From: Octopus vulgaris
Taxonomy: Eukaryota
Assembly: GCA_951406725.2 (NCBI GenBank)
Contig: OX597815.1
Coordinates: 135,098,001 to 135,162,000, forward strand
DNA length: 64,000 nucleotides
Reading direction: 5' to 3'
The notes beneath the pieces were generated by a model that saw only the letters and a list, made by a program, of their open reading frames with translations, made no database searches and had not been told where the DNA came from. Position numbers and translations under genes: made by a program. Of this stretch, positions 10,011 to 50,650 are shown in pieces (within the stretch, counting starts at the first letter, position 1; the number at the start of each line of letters is the position of its first letter).

Positions 10011-10039
10011 AGTTCATATACTGCACAAAGCAGTTTGAA

Positions 10040-10525
10040 CAAAATATTTTCATGTAAAGTCATATTTAACACATTTAAGTGTATTTGTGTTTGATAAGAT
10101 CTTCCATTGTGGAAATTGTCCAGGGAAAAACTTATCTTCCTAGCCAATATATGTGAAAGCACACTTTGGGCTGTGAATGTCACTGGATCATAGGATTCAA
10201 AAGTTTGTGTGTCTTTTTGCTTCATGAGCCAGGAGAACTAAATCTGTCACTCATAGTGAGATAAGAATAAATTTTTTTTTATTAAAACAGCATACAGTAT
10301 GTTTGCTGATGGGTGTGAAGCTTGGTCAAGCTAGAATAAAATCAATAATGTTGCATGATGCAACACTGAATAAAAAATATTTATGTAAAGTCATATTTAA
10401 CATGTTTGAGCATATTCAAACATGATAAGACCTTCCACTGCAGAAATAACCCCAGAAGAAAATTCTTCTCCAGGACTTGTAGAAAATATATATTTTGGGA
10501 TGTAAACAACATTGCTGGATTGTAG
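10040..10525 (-). mobile_element. 331-nt tandem unit (about 1.4 copies) with degenerate hammerhead-like fold at 10181-10234 (element D)
   Basis: atgtaaagtcatatttaac at 10052 and 10383. Minus strand ctgg-CTcATGA-agc-aaaaag..ctttt-GAAt-cctatgat-ccag. Confidence 0.5.
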
Positions 10526-11177: not shown

Positions 11178-11334
11178 ATTTATATGTGCATATAAGTGAG
11201 TGCCTAAGCACAAGTGTGCATTGTCACATTTATGACCTTACTACAAGACAATCTATAACAAACTCCATCAGCAGCCAATCTATAGACATCTAGTCTTTTT
11301 AGTTTCTAAATTTCTGCTAAATTACCTCATTATT

Positions 11335-11919
11335 GTAAAGTATAATAGCCATCTCGATATGGCTAACCACAGTGTTACTGTAGCTTTTTAGCCCCAGGAG
11401 ATCATCGTCTCCAGCTGGCTTTAGGCACACTATCTGTGCCCTTATGGTATTTACAAAGGGAGGCCATCCCTTTCTCGTAAGCCTAAGTGATACGCACCGG
11501 ACTGACAGTTTTGAGGTTGTTGCCTCATCAACAGGTGGTAATCACCAGATCACGATGAAAGGGAAAGCCTGTATGCAAATATATAAGAGTTTTTCTAGTG
11601 ACTTCTGCCACTGATTTCGAAAAACTGTCTGCAAGCATTATTAAATCTCAGAACGAGATGTAAACAGTAATCGCTTGACAATGTAAAGTATAATAGCCAT
11701 CTCAATATGGCTAACTACAAAGGGGGGTGTTACTGTAGCTTTTTAGCCCCAGCAAATACCATAAGGGCACAGATAGTGTGCCTAAAGCCAGCTGGAGACG
11801 ATGATCTCCTGGGGCTAAAAGCTACAGTAACACTGTGGTTAGCCATATCGAGATGGCTATTATACTCTACATTCTTGAGCGATTACTGTTTACATCTCGT
11901 TCTGAGATTTAATAATGCC
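11335..11919 (-). mobile_element. Retrozyme/Penelope-pLTR-like insertion, 348-nt unit, tandem plus inverted (element A)
   Basis: 12-bp TSD tacctcattatt at 11323-11334 and 11920-11931. Unit restarts at 11683; inverted segment 11754-11918. Confidence 0.85.
11487..11545 (-). ncRNA. Type I hammerhead-like motif (variant core)
   Basis: gtgattaccac-CTGTTGA-t-GAGG caacaa CCTC-aAAA-CT gtc AG-TC|cggtgcgtatcac: stems II and III, a GUC site and an extended, slightly out-of-register stem I. Confidence 0.6.
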
Positions 11920-12557
11920 TACCTCATTATTATCTATACAAAAATCAAAAAATAGAAGTTAAAAAAATAGAAGTTAAAAAAATAAAATATTAAAATTCTA
12001 AAATATTATATATATCATATATATATATATAGCTGGGATTATCGTTTGCATATGTGTATTAGTGAATCTCTGTTTCTTAGCTCTTATAGTTTTCTGAGTT
12101 GATCTAGCTTTGTGTCCAAGTGTCTGATTTTCATATCTGTAACCACATGTGTGAGTCTATAAATGTGAATGTGTATATTTGTGTAAGTATGCATAGTTAA
12201 ATGTGTGTTTACTATGTGGGTGAGTGAATATATATTTATATGTACATCCATATATCTATATATGAGTCAACAAACTAATGTGTATGTGTGTGTGTATCAT
12301 CATCATCATCATCATCATTTAATGTCCATTTCCATGCGGACATGGGTTAGATGGTTTAACTAGAACTGGTAAGCCAGAAAGCTGCACCAGGTTCCAGTTG
12401 GAATTTGGCTTGGTTTCTACAACTGGACGCCCTTCCTAATGCCAACCACTCCAAGAGTGTATAGTGTGTGTGTATATATATCTTTGCACCTATATGTGGG
12501 TCTCTATTACATGTTTGTGGATATAAGGACATGCATGTATATGAGTATGTGTGTGTG

Positions 12558-13127: not shown

Positions 13128-14454
13128 TATAAATATATATGCATGTATATATATATGTATGAATATATACATGAAGGAAGAAAATAGAAAAAAGCTTAGA
13201 GAAAAGAAAAACAAAAGAGTGGCATATGCTATAGTAAAAGCTCACGAGGATATGTTTTGTAGAAAAATATAGTTAAGAGTTCTCTAAAAGGGTTTTATGT
13301 ACCTTTTAGAATATGATTAGCTGGCAACAATTATGTAAAGCTTGTACATGTATGTCTTACGCATGCACACACACACACACATACGCGCAAACAGACATAT
13401 GGGCTTCAAAATAAGTGTACGCATCTTACTCTCATTAACTGGACTGTTTGTCTTCTTGCATTTGAATGTGTATTTATGTATGTATTATGTAAAAATGATG
13501 ATGATATATGAAAAAATTATCTGCTGCTAATATTTTACATGCGCATGATATATAAGTTACAACCACATGTATATTACATTATTATATTTACACACACACA
13601 CACACACAATGTACTGTATGTATTCTGTCTGTACAAATATACACAATTACACACAGACACATACAGACACACAACATACTCACAATTGAATAGACAAGTA
13701 CATCTATTTTTAATACATACACATTTTGCTCACTCAAAACACGCATACACACACATAAGTCATACCCTAAGAGATAGTCGTAACCATAAGTTAGTGAGAT
13801 TCTACCCCATCCAGTTTGTAAATGTTACATCCATTAACAGATCTAAAGGTGTCCATTAGCTACAGACATACATCAATTTTCACATGAATCTTAATCTGCA
13901 AATACAGCTGTTAATCCCTCATCCAGCATAGAAGATAAAATAGATCTAAACAACCAAATACAGCTTGTGAGATGAGGTAACATCAACAGAAATCTTAACA
14001 ACAACAATATGATATAAGCAATATATGAAAATATATATATTAATACTTCTTGATTTTTTTTCTCTCTCTTTATTCTTGTTGTTTTTAAGGTGAATTAGCA
14101 GAAGTGGTAGAACAATGGATAAAATGCCTGGTGGTATTTAGCATTCTTTCTTTATGATTTGAGTTCATGTTTCAACAGCTCCTGATTTTACATTTTACCT
14201 TTCTGTGATCAACAAAATAAATACCTTTTCCCCTAAATATGTGGTCCTGTGTTTTTGTCAACTTTGCCTTTCATCCTTATAGTGTCAATAAACTAAGTAC
14301 TAGTAGATATTGAAATCCACCAGTGCTTGTCAAAATCTATACTCATGCATCTAAGTTAGAAATTATTATCACTTTAATTACTAGCAGAAAAACTGACCCC
14401 TGGATATATATATATATATATTTTATTCTAATACAAGATTTGAGCGAGGTTGTT

Positions 14455-14730
14455 CCCAGTGCCACTGGACTGGTTCCTGTGCAGGTGGCACATAAAAAAC
14501 ACCATTTGAGCGTGGTTGTTGCCAGTACCGCCTGACTGGCCCTCATGCTGGTGGCACATAAAAGCACCCATTACACTCTTGGAGTGGTTGGCGTTAGGAA
14601 GGGCATCCAGCTGTAGAAACTCTGCTAGATCAGATTGGAGCCTGGTGCAGCCATCTGGTTCGCCAGTCCTCAGTCAAATTGTCCAACACATGCTAGCATG
14701 GAAAGTGGACTTTAAACGATGATGATGATG
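14455..14730 (+). mobile_element. SINE/LINE-tail family S2
   Basis: ggtggcacataaaa..cacc repeats, ggaagggcatccagctgtagaaac and a (gat)n tail. Confidence 0.85.
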
Positions 14731-15679: not shown

Positions 15680-15995
15680 CCCTTTGGTTATGAATGACCA
15701 TGGGATTGCACTTATAAAATTACCCTCCAAGGCACAAAATGTTTAAGGAAGACCAACAGTTGCCCATGCATACCAGCCTCCCCTCTCCACACCACTGTTA
15801 TCTAAGGGAAAGGCAAAGGCTGATACAGCTTGGCACCAGTGACATCACAACTCATTTCTACAGTCAAGTGAACTGGAGCAACTTGAAATAAAGTGTCTTG
15901 CTCAAGAACACAACACACAATCCAGTCTGGATATTGCACTCACTACCTCATGATTGTGAGTCCAGCACTCTAACGACTGAAGCATTTGCCTTCAC
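15680..15995 (-). mobile_element. CORE-like SINE family S4b
   Basis: Homologous to 19745-20055 (+) and 30525-30855 (-). Confidence 0.8.
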
Positions 15996-16076: not shown

Positions 16077-18008
16077 ATATATATATATATATATATATGC
16101 ACATATATACATATATATATGTACACATGTAAATATACATATAGCAAATTAAGACTTATTCGAGGTAGGAATTTTACAGCCTGATGGTTTTCTTGCTACC
16201 AACATTTACCAGCTTTTAACTGTTTTGCAAGTAATGGATTTTGTATGCTAAAGGTCTTCAAGAGTGCAGGACAAGTGAACACAATATTAAAAACATTCAT
16301 GCACATTTGTATGCATGTGGAAGCATGCACACACATGTGCACACATGCGCGTACACACACAACGCAGTCGGCCTGGATACTACACTCAAATGGAAAATGT
16401 ATAGAAATGTGATCATGTTCACTAGAATGCATAGGTCTACTCAATTATGCTGCCCCAGAATTAAAGAATGACAAATTGTTTTATAATTCATTCAAAACAA
16501 ATAATCCATTAAATAAATCTCATGAGCAAATAAAAAATTTAGACTGATCTGAACATTAAGACAGTTATTTATACAATAAATAGATATGGTTATGATAGTG
16601 TATCCCTCTTATATACATACATATATATATGTAAGTAAATGCACGTAGATATGTAAAAGAAATGCATTAACAATATGAAGTTCAAAACAAAGTAAAAAGC
16701 TTAATTAAGCTCTGCTACTTGTAATTGGAAATGGAATGTTCTGAAATATACACCAATAGTAACTGTTACATAATTTTCATTTTAAATTAAAAGTTAATCT
16801 GTAGCAAATGTGAGAATAAATTAATTTCCTGCTTAGTTTTCTGTTAGTAACTTATAATTTTAAGTAATGTTCAGGGTACAAAATTCAAGTAAACAGAGCA
16901 TCATGGCAAAAACAAAGAATGTAAATGGATCTTTGGGGAGAGAATGCTGTGTATACAGAAATTTTGTGGAGGTATAATGAATAAAATTTCCTTATTTTTT
17001 ATCTTTGTAGTAATAAAATACTGATATAAAACATATACATAATAAGCATGCTAAAAATGTCTTAGGTTATTTTAATCATAGAAGTACAGTGTACCATTAA
17101 TGTAACTTAAGTCATTTGAATATTTAATTAAAGCATGAAATGAGAATTTCCGTTCCTGTTTAATTTTCTTCATTCGTAGGATGAGTATTAAGTAATACAG
17201 ATATTTACATTCTACAGATATTTTCTGTTTCTGATTGGTTTTGAAATAATTACACACATTTTAAACAGGATATAAAGTTATAATAGGAAATGTTTTCAGG
17301 ATGGCTTCATACAAACTGAAACATTTCATTTACAGATTGCTATACTTTCAGACACCCTTGGACAAAAATGATACCAAATTATTTTAAATATGAAATTTTA
17401 AAAAAATATGAAAAACAAAAAATCAGAAAAAACATCTAATTACATATTATGTGGCAAAACATTCCACATATCATTTGCGTGTGAATAAATAAATTCTTGG
17501 CTTTCAGTCAAACCTTGTGCTTTCATGCTTTGATTAATTAGAAAAACATATGACTATGTCTGGTTATATATGTATATACATTGGTGTAATTCTGCATTAA
17601 ATTTGATTTTGTTAATAGAAACCAGCATGGCATCTCTGAGTACAACCATCATATACATGTAAAACAGGTTTTGAATAGTAAAGTGAACCTGGTATAAATT
17701 ACAGTTTTACATATCTTTTTAAAATTTCAATTGTCTCCCTTGCAAGTTTATTACTGGTTTGTGTTTATTTTACCAAAAGTGATTGGGATATTCTTAGCAA
17801 TCAAGGTCTTGACAGTTTTACACAATGACAGTTCCATTGAAAACAATTCTGTGTGTGTGTATTTGGCAAGTCTAAGATGGCATTGTTGTTTTTTTTAAGT
17901 TACCAAACTGAACAAAAGGAAATACATTAGAAAAAGTAATTTTAAGATAAAAAAAAAATCCTTATCTGCCCTGTATACAGTGAGATCTGGAATGAATATT
18001 TGCATCTC

Positions 18009-18231
18009 TTATCATTTATCTTTCACTTGTTTCAGTCATTAGACTGTGGCTATGTTGGGGCACTGCCTTGAAGAATTTTTAGCCAAATGAATTGACCCTT
18101 GTACTTTTTTTTAAGCCTGGTACTTATTCAATTGTTCTCTTTTGCTGAACTGCTAAGTTATAGGGACATAAACACACAAGCACCAGTTGTCAAGCAGTGG
18201 TGGTGGGTGACAAACACAGACAAAAAGACAA

Positions 18232-18262
<31 letters not shown>

Positions 18263-18428
18263 CACACACAATGGGCTTCTTTCAGCTTCAGTCAACCAAA
18301 TCCACTCACAAGGTTTTGGTTGGCCCGAGGCTATAGTAAAAGACACTTGCCTAAGGTACCATGCAATGGGACTGAATCCAGAACCAAGTGGTTGGGAAGC
18401 AAGCTTTTTACTACACAGCCATGCCTGC
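18009..18428 (-). mobile_element. SINE family S1
   Basis: Full-length reverse copy of 61685-62100. Confidence 0.9.
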
Positions 18429-18555
18429 ATGTTTTTCACAGGTCTAAGCAGGTTCAGAAAAATTATACTGGTCGCTGTGGAGTATATGATAAGAGAATAA
18501 ATGCTCTTTTTTATGATGATCCCATGTTCAACACACTTGGCTTATTGGTAGAAGA

Positions 18556-18602
18556 CATTCAGGGTCATTGGTGTTTCAACATGTGTCTCATCAGTCAGAA
18601 GC
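18556..18602 (-). ncRNA. Type I hammerhead motif C1
   Basis: gcttctga-CTGATGA-GAC acat GTT-GAAA-caccaatgac|cctgaatg: intact CUGAUGA and GAAA, mutated cleavage site. Confidence 0.7.
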
Positions 18603-18754
18603 AGTAGGAACTCTGAATCTAAACAAAGCCAGCAGCTTTGTTTCTACTTTAGTGCACAAATTGTTTGCTGCTTGGTAATTATATCTGCCAAGTAATACAA
18701 AATTGTTGTATGCACCATTTACAGTGAGATCAAGAATAATTATTCATATTTTTA

Positions 18755-19116
18755 GGTATGGCTGTGTCATAAGAAGCTTGCTTCCCAACCACATGGTTCT
18801 AGGTTCAGTCCCACTGTAGCACCTTGGGCAAGTGTCTTTTAATAAAGCCTCAGGCCAACCTTGTGAGTGGATCTGGCTGATGGAAATTGAAAGGAGCCCA
18901 TGTCTTTGTATCTGTGTTTGTCACCCCATCACTGCTTGACAACAGGTGCTGGTGTGTTTATGTCCCTGTAACTTAGTGGTGTGGCAAAAGTGACCAATTT
19001 GAATAAGCACTAAGCTTTAAAAAAAAATAAGTCCTGGGGTTGATTTGCTTGACTAAAACTCTTCGAGATGGTGCTCCAGCATGGCCGCAGTCAAATGACT
19101 GAAACAAGTAAAAGAG
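18755..19116 (+). mobile_element. SINE family S1
   Basis: ggtatggctgtg...ggtgctccagcatggccgcagtcaaatgactgaaacaagtaaaaga. Confidence 0.9.
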
Positions 19117-19231
19117 TAAATCTAAGCAGATTTGGATGCAAATATTTTGGTTGCTGTAACATATGTCACAGAATAAATTCTGCCATTTGTGATGACAGTG
19201 TGTTGAACACACTTGGCTCATTGATGCATGT

Positions 19232-19281
19232 CATTATGGGATACTGGTGTTTCAATATGTTGTGTCTAGTAAGCCAGAGGC
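19232..19281 (-). ncRNA. Type I hammerhead motif C2 (degenerate)
   Basis: gcctctgg-CTtActA-gacacaacatatt-GAAA-caccagtATC|ccataatg. Confidence 0.55.
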
Positions 19282-19566
19282 AACTGGAATTCTGAGCTTA
19301 AAACAAAGTTGCAGGCTTTGTTTATGCTTTCTGTACACAAATTGCTTGCTATCAATGCTTATTTCTGCCAACCAATAAAAAAACTGTTATGTGCACTATG
19401 TTAAGAATATGGAAATAATCATTCCAAATCTTGATGTAATCAGTGCAAATTTTATAATTTTTTTTTTTCTGTTGGTTGGCAGATATAGGCATCAATTAGC
19501 AAATAATTTGTTCACTGAAGGTATAAACAAAGTCACTGGCTTTGATTAGGTTCAAGAGTTTTGGCT

Positions 19567-19614
19567 GCTTCTGGCTGACAAGACACATGTTGAAACACCA
19601 GTATTCCAGAATGC
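19567..19614 (+). ncRNA. Type I hammerhead motif C3 (in the inverted copy)
   Basis: gcttctgg-CTGACaA-GAC acat GTT-GAAA-caccagtATT|ccagaatgc; stem I ttctgg/ccagaa. Confidence 0.7.
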
Positions 19615-19744
19615 TGTGCAGCAATAAGCTGTCATCCTAAAGGGGAGTAGTTATTCTCCTATACAGTGACCAGTGTATTTTGCATCTCAAGCTGCCTAGA
19701 CATGTTAAAAATAAATATGTTAATAATCATTAATTTTAAAATAA

Positions 19745-20055
19745 GGTGCATGGCTCAGTGTTGAGCTTACGATTGTGAGGTTGTGAGCTCGAATCCTGGA
19801 CCAGGCTGCGTATTGTGTTCTTGAGCAAGAAACTTTATTTCATGTTGCTCCAGTTCACTCAGCTGTAGAAATGAGTTGCGATGTCACAGGTGCTAAGCTG
19901 TATTAGCCCTTGCCTTTCCCCTGGTGAGGGGAGGCCGGTATGCATGGGCGACTGCTGGTCTTCCATAAAAAAACAACCTTGCCTGGACTTGTGCCTGTGA
20001 GGGTAATTTTCTAGGTGCAATCCCATGGTCTATGTCGTGACCGAAGGGTGTCTCA
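19745..20055 (+). mobile_element. CORE-like SINE family S4b
   Basis: tRNA-like head tggctcagtg...ctcgaatcctgg followed by the tgtgttcttgagcaagaaactttatttc core. Confidence 0.8.
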
Positions 20056-20779
20056 GAAATCTAACTAGAAAAAATAAATTTATACTGCTTTGCATTCCAT
20101 ACACAAAATCATATATATATTAAACCCACATAACAGCAGAGCCTTAGCATGGCTGCAGCTCTTGAGCTGAAACTATTAAAGCAAAACAAAAAAACATTTT
20201 AAAGCAAGGCAGCTTTTGTATCTATGTAAATCGTTTTAACCCATACTTTGTATGTGTTGATCTTTACACTCAATTGTTTTTGTGTGGAATTGTTGGAAAA
20301 ACTCTTTAAAAGATAATAATGAAATGCACAAAAAATGTAACTTTAAGATTTATTATAATCTAGAATCTTGTCATATAAAACTATGAGTGGTTTTGCAACA
20401 AGTTGTGTTTATTTGATTAGATCATTGATTAAAATAAATATAATCACATTTTTATGCAAACAATGTTTCATTACAATTATCTACATAAATACATTTTAAA
20501 ATACCAGCACACAACAGGTTTGTTTAGGCTAGCTATGGTTTATTTAAATTTGCCATGGAACCAGATATAGCTATGTTCCATAGAACCTAGTCTAAGAAAA
20601 AACAGTGGACTGTTACTAGCAATAATTATCGTAAAACACTTTTTTATTTGAAATATATTATTATACTGGGGACTGATGTCTACAGCACAAGATCAATTGT
20701 ACTGTATTTTGAACAGTTATACACACACACACACACACATACATACATAAATAAATAAATACATACATACATACATACA

Positions 20780-20980
20780 TAGTTGAAATTTACAAAAAAA
20801 CTAAAGAGAAAAAGAGGTGTATAAATATCAAACAGGTGTATTAGTTTAATGCTCGGGAAGATGAGAAAGTCTTTTATGTTTCAAGCCTATGCTCTTCAAC
20901 AGAAAGGAACACAAATAAATAAACAGAGAGAAAATAAAAAAAAAGCTTTAGGAGCTATTGGTCAATCATGGCAGTCAATC
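20780..20980 (-). mobile_element. ~200-nt dispersed repeat with minimal hammerhead (20871-20907)
   Basis: cttt-CTGTTGA-a-GAGC atag GCTT-GAAA-cATA|aaag; homologous to 48757-48930 and 50458-50650. Confidence 0.7.
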
Positions 20981-28639: not shown

Positions 28640-29045
28640 GGAAATAGTAGTTGTGATACCTGTGCCGGTGGCACATAAAAAGCACCATCCGAACGTGGCC
28701 GTTGCCAGCACCGCCTCGACTGGCTTCTGTGCCGGTGGCACATAAAAAGCACCATCCGAACATGGCCGATGCCAGCACCGCCTTGGCTGGCTTCCGTGCC
28801 GGTGGCACGTTAAAAGCACCAACCGATTGTGGCCGATACCGGACTCCCCTGGCACCTGTGCAGGTGGCACATAAAAAGCACCCACTACACTCGCGGAGCG
28901 GTTGGCATTAGGAAGGGCATCCAGCTGTAGAAACACTGCCAGATCAGACTGGAGCCTGGTGCAGCCCCTGGCTTCCCAGACCCCGGTTGAACCGTCCAAC
29001 CTGTGCTAGCACGGAAAACGGACGTTAAACGATGATGATGATGAT
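28640..29045 (+). mobile_element. Young S2 element with four internal ~67-bp repeats
   Basis: gtgc(c/a)ggtggcac at 28662, 28729, 28796 and 28858; CpGs retained; (gat)n tail. Confidence 0.9.
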
Positions 29046-30524: not shown

Positions 30525-30855
30525 ACCCCTTTAGTCATGAATGACTGTGGGATTGGACCTAGAAAGTTGTCCTCTGAGGTACAAGTCTGGGCAAGGTCGT
30601 TTATGGAAAGCCACTAGTTACCCATGCATACCAGCTTCCCATCTCCATACCACCGATGATATCCAAGGGAAAAGCAAAAGCCAATACAGCTTGGCACCAG
30701 TGATATTACAACTCACTTCTACAGATGAGTGAACTGGAGTAACGCAAAATAAAGTGTCTTGCTGAAGAACACAACACACAACCAGGTCCAGGAATTGAAC
30801 TCACTACCTCAGGATTGCGAGCCTGATGCTCTAACCATTGAGTCATGCACCTTCA
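30525..30855 (-). mobile_element. CORE-like SINE family S4b
   Basis: Homologous to 15680-15995. Confidence 0.8.
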
Positions 30856-38671: not shown

Positions 38672-39025
38672 ATCATCATCGTTTAACGTTCGTTTTCCAT
38701 GATGGTTTGACTGGGGACTGGCAAGCCAGGAGGCTGCACCAGACACCAATCTGATCTGGTAATGTTTCTACAGCTGGATGCCTTTCCTAATGCCAACCAC
38801 TCCCGAGAGTGTAGTGGGTTTCCTTTTTACGTGCCACCGGCATGGGAGCCAGTCAGGCAGCACTGGCATCAACCATGTTCAGATGGTGGTTTTTATGTGC
38901 CACTGTCATGGGGAGCCAGTCAGGTGGCACTAGCAACAACCCACGCATGAATGGTGCCTATTGCATGCCACCAGCATGGGAGCCAGTCAGGTGGCACTGG
39001 CATCGGCCACAACTACAAATTCCAT
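38672..39025 (-). mobile_element. SINE/LINE-tail family S2 with three internal repeats
   Basis: catgggagccagtcagg repeated three times. Confidence 0.85.
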
Positions 39026-48758: not shown

Positions 48759-48930
48759 AGAGTTTATTAAAAAAACAAAAGATGAAGAGAGGTGGTGTAC
48801 AAAACAAACAGATATATTAGTATAACGCTCAGGAATAGAAAATGTATTTTACGTTTTGAGCTTACGCTCTTCTACAGAAAGGGACACAGAAAAAACAAGA
48901 AGAGAAAAAAATATATATATTATACTAGCA
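48757..48930 (-). mobile_element. Dispersed repeat with minimal hammerhead (48846-48882)
   Basis: cttt-CTGTAGA-a-GAGC gtaa GCTC-aAAA-cGTA|aaat. Confidence 0.7.
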
Positions 48931-50269: not shown

Positions 50270-50650
50270 ATATAGTTAATCCAAACTTGAAAACACAAAG
50301 AGAAAACACAACAACGCTAGGATGTGGAACAAATAGTGTTATTGGACGTTCAGGAGAGGAAAGTAAGAAGGAGGATTTGATGTTTCGAGCGGAGCTCTTT
50401 GTCAGAAACATAGAAAAAGGAAAGGTCCAAGGAAGGGAATGTATATATATATATTTAAGGAGAATTCACAAAAAATCAAAAGACGAAGACAGGTGGTGTA
50501 GACAACAAACAGATGTATTAGTATAACGCTTGGGAAGTGAAAAAGTCTTTAATGTTTCGAGCCTACGCTCTTCCACAGAAAGAAACAAGGAGAGAAAATA
50601 AAGAATGTGTAGTGGCTAGTGATCTATCATGGCAAATGATAGATCGGTGT
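50270..50650 (-). mobile_element. Two adjacent minimal-hammerhead repeats (50375-50410 and 50547-50582)
   Basis: gttt-CTGACaA-a-GAGC tcc GCTC-GAAA-cATC|aaat and cttt-CTGTGGA-a-GAGC gtag GCTC-GAAA-cATT|aaag. Confidence 0.75.

Follow-up and report, generated by a model that had tools for sequence, protein, structure and literature searches.

Tandem repeats with type I hammerhead ribozymes, dimer cleavage by such ribozymes and a proposed link to Penelope-like elements (PLEs) are already in print. The repeats closest to the one reported here are the retrozymes lacking long terminal repeats (non-LTR retrozymes). As described in PMC7229834, these consist of tandem non-coding units within 150-450 nt, with less than 50% GC and one type I hammerhead per unit, the units measuring 350-390 nt in the mussel Mytilus, 330/350 nt in the axolotl and 220-245 nt in coral. 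The enzyme that moves retrozymes in animals is still argued from co-occurrence and from similarity to pseudo-LTRs (pLTRs) (PMC7229834; Li et al., 2026). The main text of PMC7229834 names no cephalopod, and in the literature on octopus and cephalopod hammerheads or retrozymes we found no such element reported, although supplements and subscription papers may hold cases; neither "hammerhead" nor "ribozyme" occurs in the main text of the Octopus vulgaris repeat annotation. We analyzed a stretch of 64,000 nt from O. vulgaris (contig OX597815.1, positions 135,098,001 to 135,162,000, forward strand; hereafter the window) and describe at its positions 17951-19730 an old, decayed array of a ~315-nt repeat with hammerhead remnants.

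This locus is in our view probably an inactive copy of a non-LTR retrozyme whose ~315-nt non-coding unit carries a single type I hammerhead, and PLE enzymes probably brought about its insertion. What the sequence shows directly is the tandem and inverted layout, the hammerhead remnants, the later insertion of short interspersed elements (SINEs), the heavy CpG loss and the presence of a lesion in every ribozyme copy. The unit size, the 35% GC, the lack of an open reading frame (ORF) and a candidate target-site duplication (TSD) of more than 4 bp fit the description of retrozymes given in PMC7229834 and, as in those elements, no LTR-type features were seen. Unlike them, the array has only broken ribozymes, an inverted arm, a 3-bp stem II with a 4-nt loop, and a unit circle whose self-pairing does not exceed that of shuffled sequences; the word "inverted" appears in the main text of neither retrozyme paper (one of them PMC7229834) outside the references. 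By the definition of an active retrozyme in Li et al. (2026), two consecutive units with complete hammerheads, the array, with 0/3 complete, is a fossil.

Array layout and hammerhead remnants

When the two SINEs were removed, 17951-19730 was reduced to 1000 nt of a single ~315-nt repeat with 35% GC. Self-comparison recovered a minus-strand arm of ~2.1 tandem units that meets, head-to-head, a plus-strand arm of ~1.1 units, with a period of 309-323 nt and identities of 72-77%. We confirmed the old array of tandem units, one further unit being inverted, that the initial annotation had proposed; a partial unit had been overlooked. The tandem arm comprises a partial unit U0 (~0.2 unit; 17951..18016, minus strand; nhmmer E 2.4e-05 over profile positions 2-57, and aligned to U3), the full unit U1 (18430..18752, minus) and U2 (19120..19397, minus), which lacks the first ~40 nt and forms the 5' end of the arm. 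U0 is the 3' end of this arm and ends in the T-tract of the unit, at unit position ~62-73. The inverted arm comprises the full unit U3 (19398..19700, plus), with deletions of 18 nt and ~10 nt, and at its 3' end the overlooked U4 (19701..19730, plus), the first ~26 nt of a further unit. U4 matches the unit start at 23/26 positions, a score reached by 3/12144 AT-rich 30-mers, and the match was weaker in an unanchored local test (p 0.02-0.04). In both arms the hammerheads read outward, and the inversion junction at 19398..19403 is therefore head-to-head (5'-5'); it shows a few bases of microhomology, lies within an inverted self-match at 19216-19629 and has a small hairpin beside it.

The units are far more similar to one another than shuffled sequences are, with pairwise identities of 197/272, 224/292 and 191/250 and local scores of 138, 141 and 118 against shuffle maxima of 31, 35 and 30 (300 shuffles each). 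Jukes-Cantor (JC) distances between them are 0.28-0.34, and the odd-one-out counts among the three (25, 34 and 23) are star-like: no two units group as sisters, as expected of copies still identical when they were inserted. All three units have in common a 10-bp hairpin upstream of the hammerhead (18621..18643, minus, in U1; columns 127-149 paired in RNAalifold, and an inverted self-match). We found no extension of the array to the left of 17951 or to the right of a third SINE-like repeat (p 0.2-1.0), and Tandem Repeats Finder missed the array.

In agreement with the three hammerhead copies initially annotated, we recovered a type I hammerhead-like motif in each of the three full units, one per unit and at the equivalent position, with C3 at 18594 (minus), 19273 (minus) and 19575 (plus) and the cleavage nucleotide H17 at 18564, 19240 and 19605. 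Copy 1 (18555..18602, minus) has both CUGAUGA and GAAA intact, U16.1 changed to A, and 4/6 pairs in stem I, the 1.1-2.1 pair being broken. In copy 2 (19231..19281, minus) G5 and G8 are both changed to U, stem I again has 4/6 pairs and loop II contains a 3-nt duplication. Copy 3 (19567..19614, plus) has a 6/6 stem I with a bulged U and two more pairs, and G8 changed to A. All three copies are predicted to be inactive, and they count as cryptic mutants because the rejection rules for such hammerheads set out in PMC3088659 apply to them.

The core (C3 U4 G5 A6 N7 G8 A9; G12 A13 A14 A15.1) is exact in copy 1, has two changes in copy 2 and one in copy 3, and is complete in the consensus. The U16.1-H17 triplet with the A15.1-U16.1 pair is present in 2/3 copies and in the consensus, being lost in copy 1. 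Stem I is in exact register with the NUH triplet, with 6/6 pairs in copy 3 and in the three-copy consensus, and every break in it is private to one copy; the NUH and the stem I complementarity that had been annotated are thus borne out. Stem II has 8/9 cells paired and stem III 6/9. In its anatomy the motif combines a 6-bp stem I with a 3-bp stem II, closed by a 4-nt loop, and a stem III of 10 nt; A9 is not followed by an extra base.

The majority consensus (321 columns, 38 of them ambiguous) gave one match to a type I descriptor (stem I of at least 6 bp, stem II of at least 3 bp, core and UH). Only 9/20000 column shuffles fitted this descriptor and 93/20000 a relaxed one, the descriptor having been applied after the motif was seen and the consensus G8 being taken from 1/3 copies. 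Sites with both core boxes exact and a stem II, as in copy 1, number two in the window against 0.175 expected, and 33/42 cells of the named structure are paired against 14-48% when the partners are slid. We read the motif, from its sequence, as a real hammerhead that has decayed.

CpG decay, stem III and dimer cleavage

The array retains a single CpG in 1000 nt. The nested SINEs have lost 30 of the 32 CpG sites of younger copies (14 to TG, 11 to CA and 5 to other states), while change elsewhere amounts to 11%. Eleven sites of the unit alignment show mixed TG/CA states, N7-G8 among them, and the G8 site reads TG, CT and CA in the three copies, as expected from one decayed CpG. Of the 20 invariant TG/CA sites, about 3 are expected to conceal a former CpG. 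Exactly at 11.1-12, the states CG, TG and CA are all found in another hammerhead-like family of the window.

This decay bears on the reconstruction of stem III. The consensus previously written for the motif holds in outline. The C of its "GUY" is unsupported, position 11.1 being U in 3/3 copies and 10.1-11.1 reading G-U throughout; the "r" of loop III is A in 3/3 copies, and G at 16.2 occurs only in copy 1. The ancestral palindromic stem III that the initial annotation derived from it was found in no copy, stem III as read self-pairing at 4/10, 6/10 and 6/10 positions in copies 1-3, and it depends on restored positions: for the palindrome to hold, a CpG must have decayed the same way in each of the three copies, and G must twice independently have become A. 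A restored C11.1 and a palindrome are reasonable because CpG decay is strong at this locus. On rough posteriors under assumed priors, C11.1 is likely, G16.2 comes out between little better than even and likely, and the loop III CpG between unlikely and fairly likely, so graded from the sequence. For a full palindromic stem III in the ancestor the chances appear roughly balanced. An alternative palindrome with U at 15.2 was ruled out, C being present there in 3/3 copies.

We compared monomer and dimer folds using nearest-neighbor energies, figures that include neither tertiary contacts nor an active control. With G16.2 and C11.1 restored, the monomer minimum lies 5.3-5.4 kcal/mol below the active fold and has the cleavage strand base-paired to the strand of stem II. 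When the palindrome is granted, a double hammerhead is more stable than two active monomers by 20.3 kcal/mol and misses the dimer minimum by 0.1 kcal/mol per site, the corresponding figures without the loop CpG being 10.2 and 1.8 kcal/mol. For the consensus as read, neither fold is favored (gaps of 7.7 and 7.9). The dimer cleavage that had been suggested for the array is thus energetically plausible on condition that stem III was palindromic, and finds no preference in the consensus as it stands.

Palindromic stems III are known from the hammerheads of newt satellite 2, axolotl Amex1/2 and Aedes (PMC3088659), with which the array shares a 6-bp stem I and a 10-nt stem III segment that would give a 10-bp dimer helix; the legend of Fig. 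S8 of that paper gives a 10-bp dimer stem III for the Aedes repeats. Unlike in those hammerheads, the palindrome of the array is reconstructed, not observed, and 10.1-11.1 is G-U in all copies. An obligate dimer is made less likely by PMC7229834 and PMC7761336, in which most of the invertebrate retrozyme hammerheads tested have a helix III that is stable and in which monomers from coral and mussel cleave. The array shares with the minimal hammerhead ribozymes (min-HHRs) of metazoan PLEs, as described in PMC4209133, the type I topology and the dimer cleavage expected if stem III was palindromic. In those ribozymes helix II is long, helix I is short, helix III is nearly absent and A9 is followed by an additional base. 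The array motif has none of these features, and we therefore rejected the label of minimal hammerhead that the initial annotation had given it. A ribozyme trans-complemented between copies 1 and 2 was also ruled out, with 4/6 pairs in stem I and 5/10 in stem III.

Insertion marks and rival explanations

Candidate 14-bp TSD copies sit right at both outer ends of the element, the left one at 17937..17950 (plus strand) matching the right one at 19731..19744 (plus) at 13/14 positions. As good a score was reached by 11/4000 random AT-rich pairs, or 5/3000 with the left flank fixed, for a match picked by eye and search windows chosen after it was seen. The outer ends of the element lie at unit phases ~26 (right) and ~62-73 (left), thus offset by ~35-45 nt, and they are AT-rich and imprecise; the start of U2 is at ~40. 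The candidate target duplication and the offset ends, which suggest a PLE-type insertion, had been missed by the initial annotation. The layout is also like that of L1 twin priming.

Features often seen in PLE insertions, according to PMC8557442 and PMC3846280, are a 5' copy in inverted orientation, a TSD of 8-10 bp and, at one of the two ends, a tail of 30-40 bp. In AT-rich DNA, a purified PLE protein introduces nicks at ATT sites in both strands and extends them, and its reverse transcriptase (RT) starts at two nearby internal sites, which accounts for the tail (PMC11167929). The array resembles these insertions (PMC8557442, PMC3846280, PMC11167929) in its head-to-head inverted 5' copy, AT-rich target and hammerhead within the repeat, and probably in its candidate TSD and an approximate end offset of the 30-40-nt class. 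It differs from them in having no RT/GIY-YIG ORF, in arms made of whole tandem units and in a candidate TSD of 14 bp against 8-10 bp in Adineta. Since the arms are longer than one unit, an uncleaved multimer or a circle is needed as template. From the insertion marks, by analogy with these insertions, we infer the action of a PLE enzyme.

The following scenario can be proposed. In the active ancestor, multimeric transcripts would have cut themselves at one site in each unit, probably in the form of double hammerheads that a palindromic stem III held together, and the cleaved units could have been ligated into circles. A PLE RT/GIY-YIG protein would have nicked both strands of an AT-rich target, and its RT would have been primed from each nick at two sites ~35-45 nt apart on multimeric or circular RNA. 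One complementary DNA of ~2.1 units and another of ~1.1 would then have been joined head-to-head by microhomology, leaving the 14-bp duplication. The two SINEs would have inserted later, the locus decaying neutrally over tens of millions of years (My).

Two other repeats of the window can be described alongside the array. A younger, unrelated element at 11323-11931 consists of ~1.2 tandem units of ~350 nt and an inverted arm, 96% identical over 127 nt. It has the same layout as the array, an exact 12-bp TSD at 11323 and 11920 and outer ends offset by 46-49 nt. Its minus strand carries at ~11531-11495 a degenerate hammerhead-like motif with U at position 3, an odd palindromic stem III, GUC and an imperfect stem I, for which there is no Rfam support. 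A dispersed family with 79% column identity (20803-20934, 48776-48910 and 50477-50587) carries on the minus strand a motif like the PLE-type minimal hammerhead, with an extra A after A9, a 4-bp stem II and GAAAC, and with A6 replaced by U in 3/3 copies; two of these copies lie 1.7 kb apart in direct orientation, and by eye there is no RT frame between them.

Several observations weigh against a retrozyme copy brought in by PLE enzymes, together with the G-U pair and the imperfect stem III of all copies reported above. The evidence base is only three old, decayed copies. We found no further copies of the unit in the window, either with nhmmer or with a covariance model run with its filters off, for which the next best window match scored 12.9 bits (E 0.35). 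None of the 117 Rfam matches across the window was a hammerhead, nor did Rfam give one in 17400-20300 or around copy 3, the best score at copy 1 being at noise level (Hammerhead_3, 11.3 bits, E 7.2, gathering threshold 48.5). No compensatory change was seen in 14 pairs, covariation tests being empty with three neutrally decayed copies. The hammerhead is not the minimum-energy structure of any single copy. Retrozyme unit-length circles are described as highly self-paired, whereas the circular unit folds no more stably than shuffles (z -0.56 to -1.16, and -0.85 with diagnostic CpGs restored), a test that is weak for copies ~14% decayed. Three frames translated across the motif yielded 0 matches among 2 candidates in a protein search. 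A scan of prokaryotic genomes for the motif gave 4 loci, approximately the number expected by chance, none with unit-like flanks. The candidate TSD is AT-rich, and its right copy also resembles the continuation of the unit itself. Finally, no RT or GIY-YIG domain was matched by Pfam in 58 of the 78 frames of at least 90 aa, the 20 omitted being mostly simple-repeat or redundant SINE frames, and the hammerhead element itself contains no RT + GIY-YIG ORF.

The inverted, tailed and TSD-flanked layout is as in PLE insertions, and the unit might have been the pLTR of an autonomous PLE, left as a heavily 5'-truncated insertion or as tandem solo pLTRs, rather than a retrozyme in its own right with a circular RNA. 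The pLTRs carry type I hammerheads, and Xenopus retrozymes match pLTRs according to the preprint of Li et al. (10.64898/2026.07.22.740005). We nevertheless consider this origin fairly unlikely, with three consecutive units that have no ORF sequence between them, a ribozyme of canonical type rather than the min-HHR typical of animal pLTRs, and no match to RT or GIY-YIG in the frames scanned. The star-like divergence of the three units also argues against a single retrozyme or pLTR monomer that was amplified in place at the DNA level (by unequal crossover, slippage or fold-back inversion), the TSD and the offset then being due to chance. Local tandem amplification has been proposed for retrozymes (Li et al., 10.64898/2026.07.22.740005), short repeats arise easily in AT-rich flanks and there is the small hairpin beside the junction. 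The rate of such TSD matches in AT-rich controls is however only 0.2-0.3%, and the layout recurs, with a perfect 12-bp TSD, in the younger element at 11323-11931, so that in-place amplification appears to us quite improbable.

The absence of Rfam support, of any complete copy, of any copy folding into a hammerhead as its minimum and of covariation could also suggest an ordinary decayed satellite or non-autonomous repeat with a chance resemblance to a hammerhead. This is very unlikely given that the full descriptor fits only 9/20000 shuffled consensuses, that the exact core boxes of copy 1 with their stem II are in excess over expectation in the window and that stem I is exactly in register with NUH. 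Together, U2 and U3 make up an inverted repeat of 414 nt with 69% identity, which could be thought to have been kept by the host as a long double-stranded RNA hairpin, or the locus as a working ribozyme. Such a use is hardly conceivable: all three catalytic cores are broken, the hybrid of copies 1 and 2 fails, and the pairs of the motif are conserved no better than neutral decay leaves. An inactive retrozyme copy, probably brought in by PLE enzymes, is the explanation that we retain.

SINE insertions, surroundings of the array and significance

SINE1 (18017..18429, minus strand) is 82% identical to other copies in the window and is flanked on both sides by a degenerate ~14-nt duplication of the unit start. 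SINE2 (18753..19119, plus) belongs to the same family, is clipped at its 5' end and shows no clear duplication. Further copies of this family are present elsewhere in the window, and the translated frame of one of them gave 3 protein matches among 19 candidates, the two named being predicted proteins of O. vulgaris (74% and 59% identity). A third SINE-like repeat of another family (19745..20048, plus) lies directly outside the element and is 74-75% identical to 15680-15969 and 30527-30811. The array is older than SINE1 and SINE2, as initially annotated, since they nest within it, and it is also more diverged (JC 0.28-0.34 between units against 0.17-0.20 between the inserted SINEs and other copies of their family). 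On a scale where JC 0.2 corresponds to 56 My (PMC13282606), the ~0.15 per copy of the array would place it at some tens of My, an age probably overestimated because of CpG decay. The start of the SINE1 duplication (18430-18442), the SINE2 insertion point (18753/19119) and the inversion breakpoint (19398) fall within ~5 nt of one unit position, a site that is similar to the SINE tail only when read in one of its two orientations.

The window is AT-rich and full of microsatellites and SINEs. One SINE-like family with internal 66-67-bp tandem repeats (14438-14563, 28660-28882 and 38823-39004) has many copies, and an old direct repeat at 10036-10525 has a 331-nt period and 66% identity over 161 nt, a relaxed scan finding no hammerhead there. 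In the frames scanned with Pfam, the only matches were a sub-cutoff DDE_3 fragment and two weak ones, the former being a fragment of a Tc1/mariner-like transposase at 1872-2174 (E 4e-4, under the curated cutoff). The observed/expected CpG ratio is 0.27 for the whole window and ranges across 4-kb blocks from 0.13 to 0.46, TG and CA being in excess, a composition that suggests a methylated gene body. As octopus methylation targets gene bodies and not transposons (PMC9476566), the array may lie inside an intron, no exon having been identified. Outside the octopus, two loci from prokaryotic metagenome-assembled genomes (L002 and L004, positions 401-428 in both) have the exact hammerhead core and a 4-bp stem II, and judging by their sequence are possibly true bacterial hammerheads unrelated to the array repeat.

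The locus itself is a fossil without a working ribozyme, and its value is as evidence. It extends retrozyme-like repeats to an octopus and illustrates how CpG decay conceals such repeats from Rfam and from tandem-repeat finders, so that their counts in methylated regions are probably too low. Insertion anatomy provides an independent test of the mobilizing enzyme, and the window offers two elements with PLE-type ends. We tentatively put forward, at somewhat short of an even chance, that octopus has retrozyme families with canonical-type, dimer-gated hammerheads bearing the marks of PLE integration (head-to-head arm, RT starts 35-49 nt apart, 12-14-bp TSD and arms longer than a unit). If true, monomer circles of the reconstructed ribozyme would be kept from cleaving by the rival helix that stem II forms with the cleavage strand, whereas tandem copies would cleave, and the RT start sites would be mapped on retrozyme RNA. 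These families would then supply structural evidence of a direct kind, lacking until now, for the copying of circular or multimeric retrozyme RNA by PLE enzymes that prime on both strands of the target.

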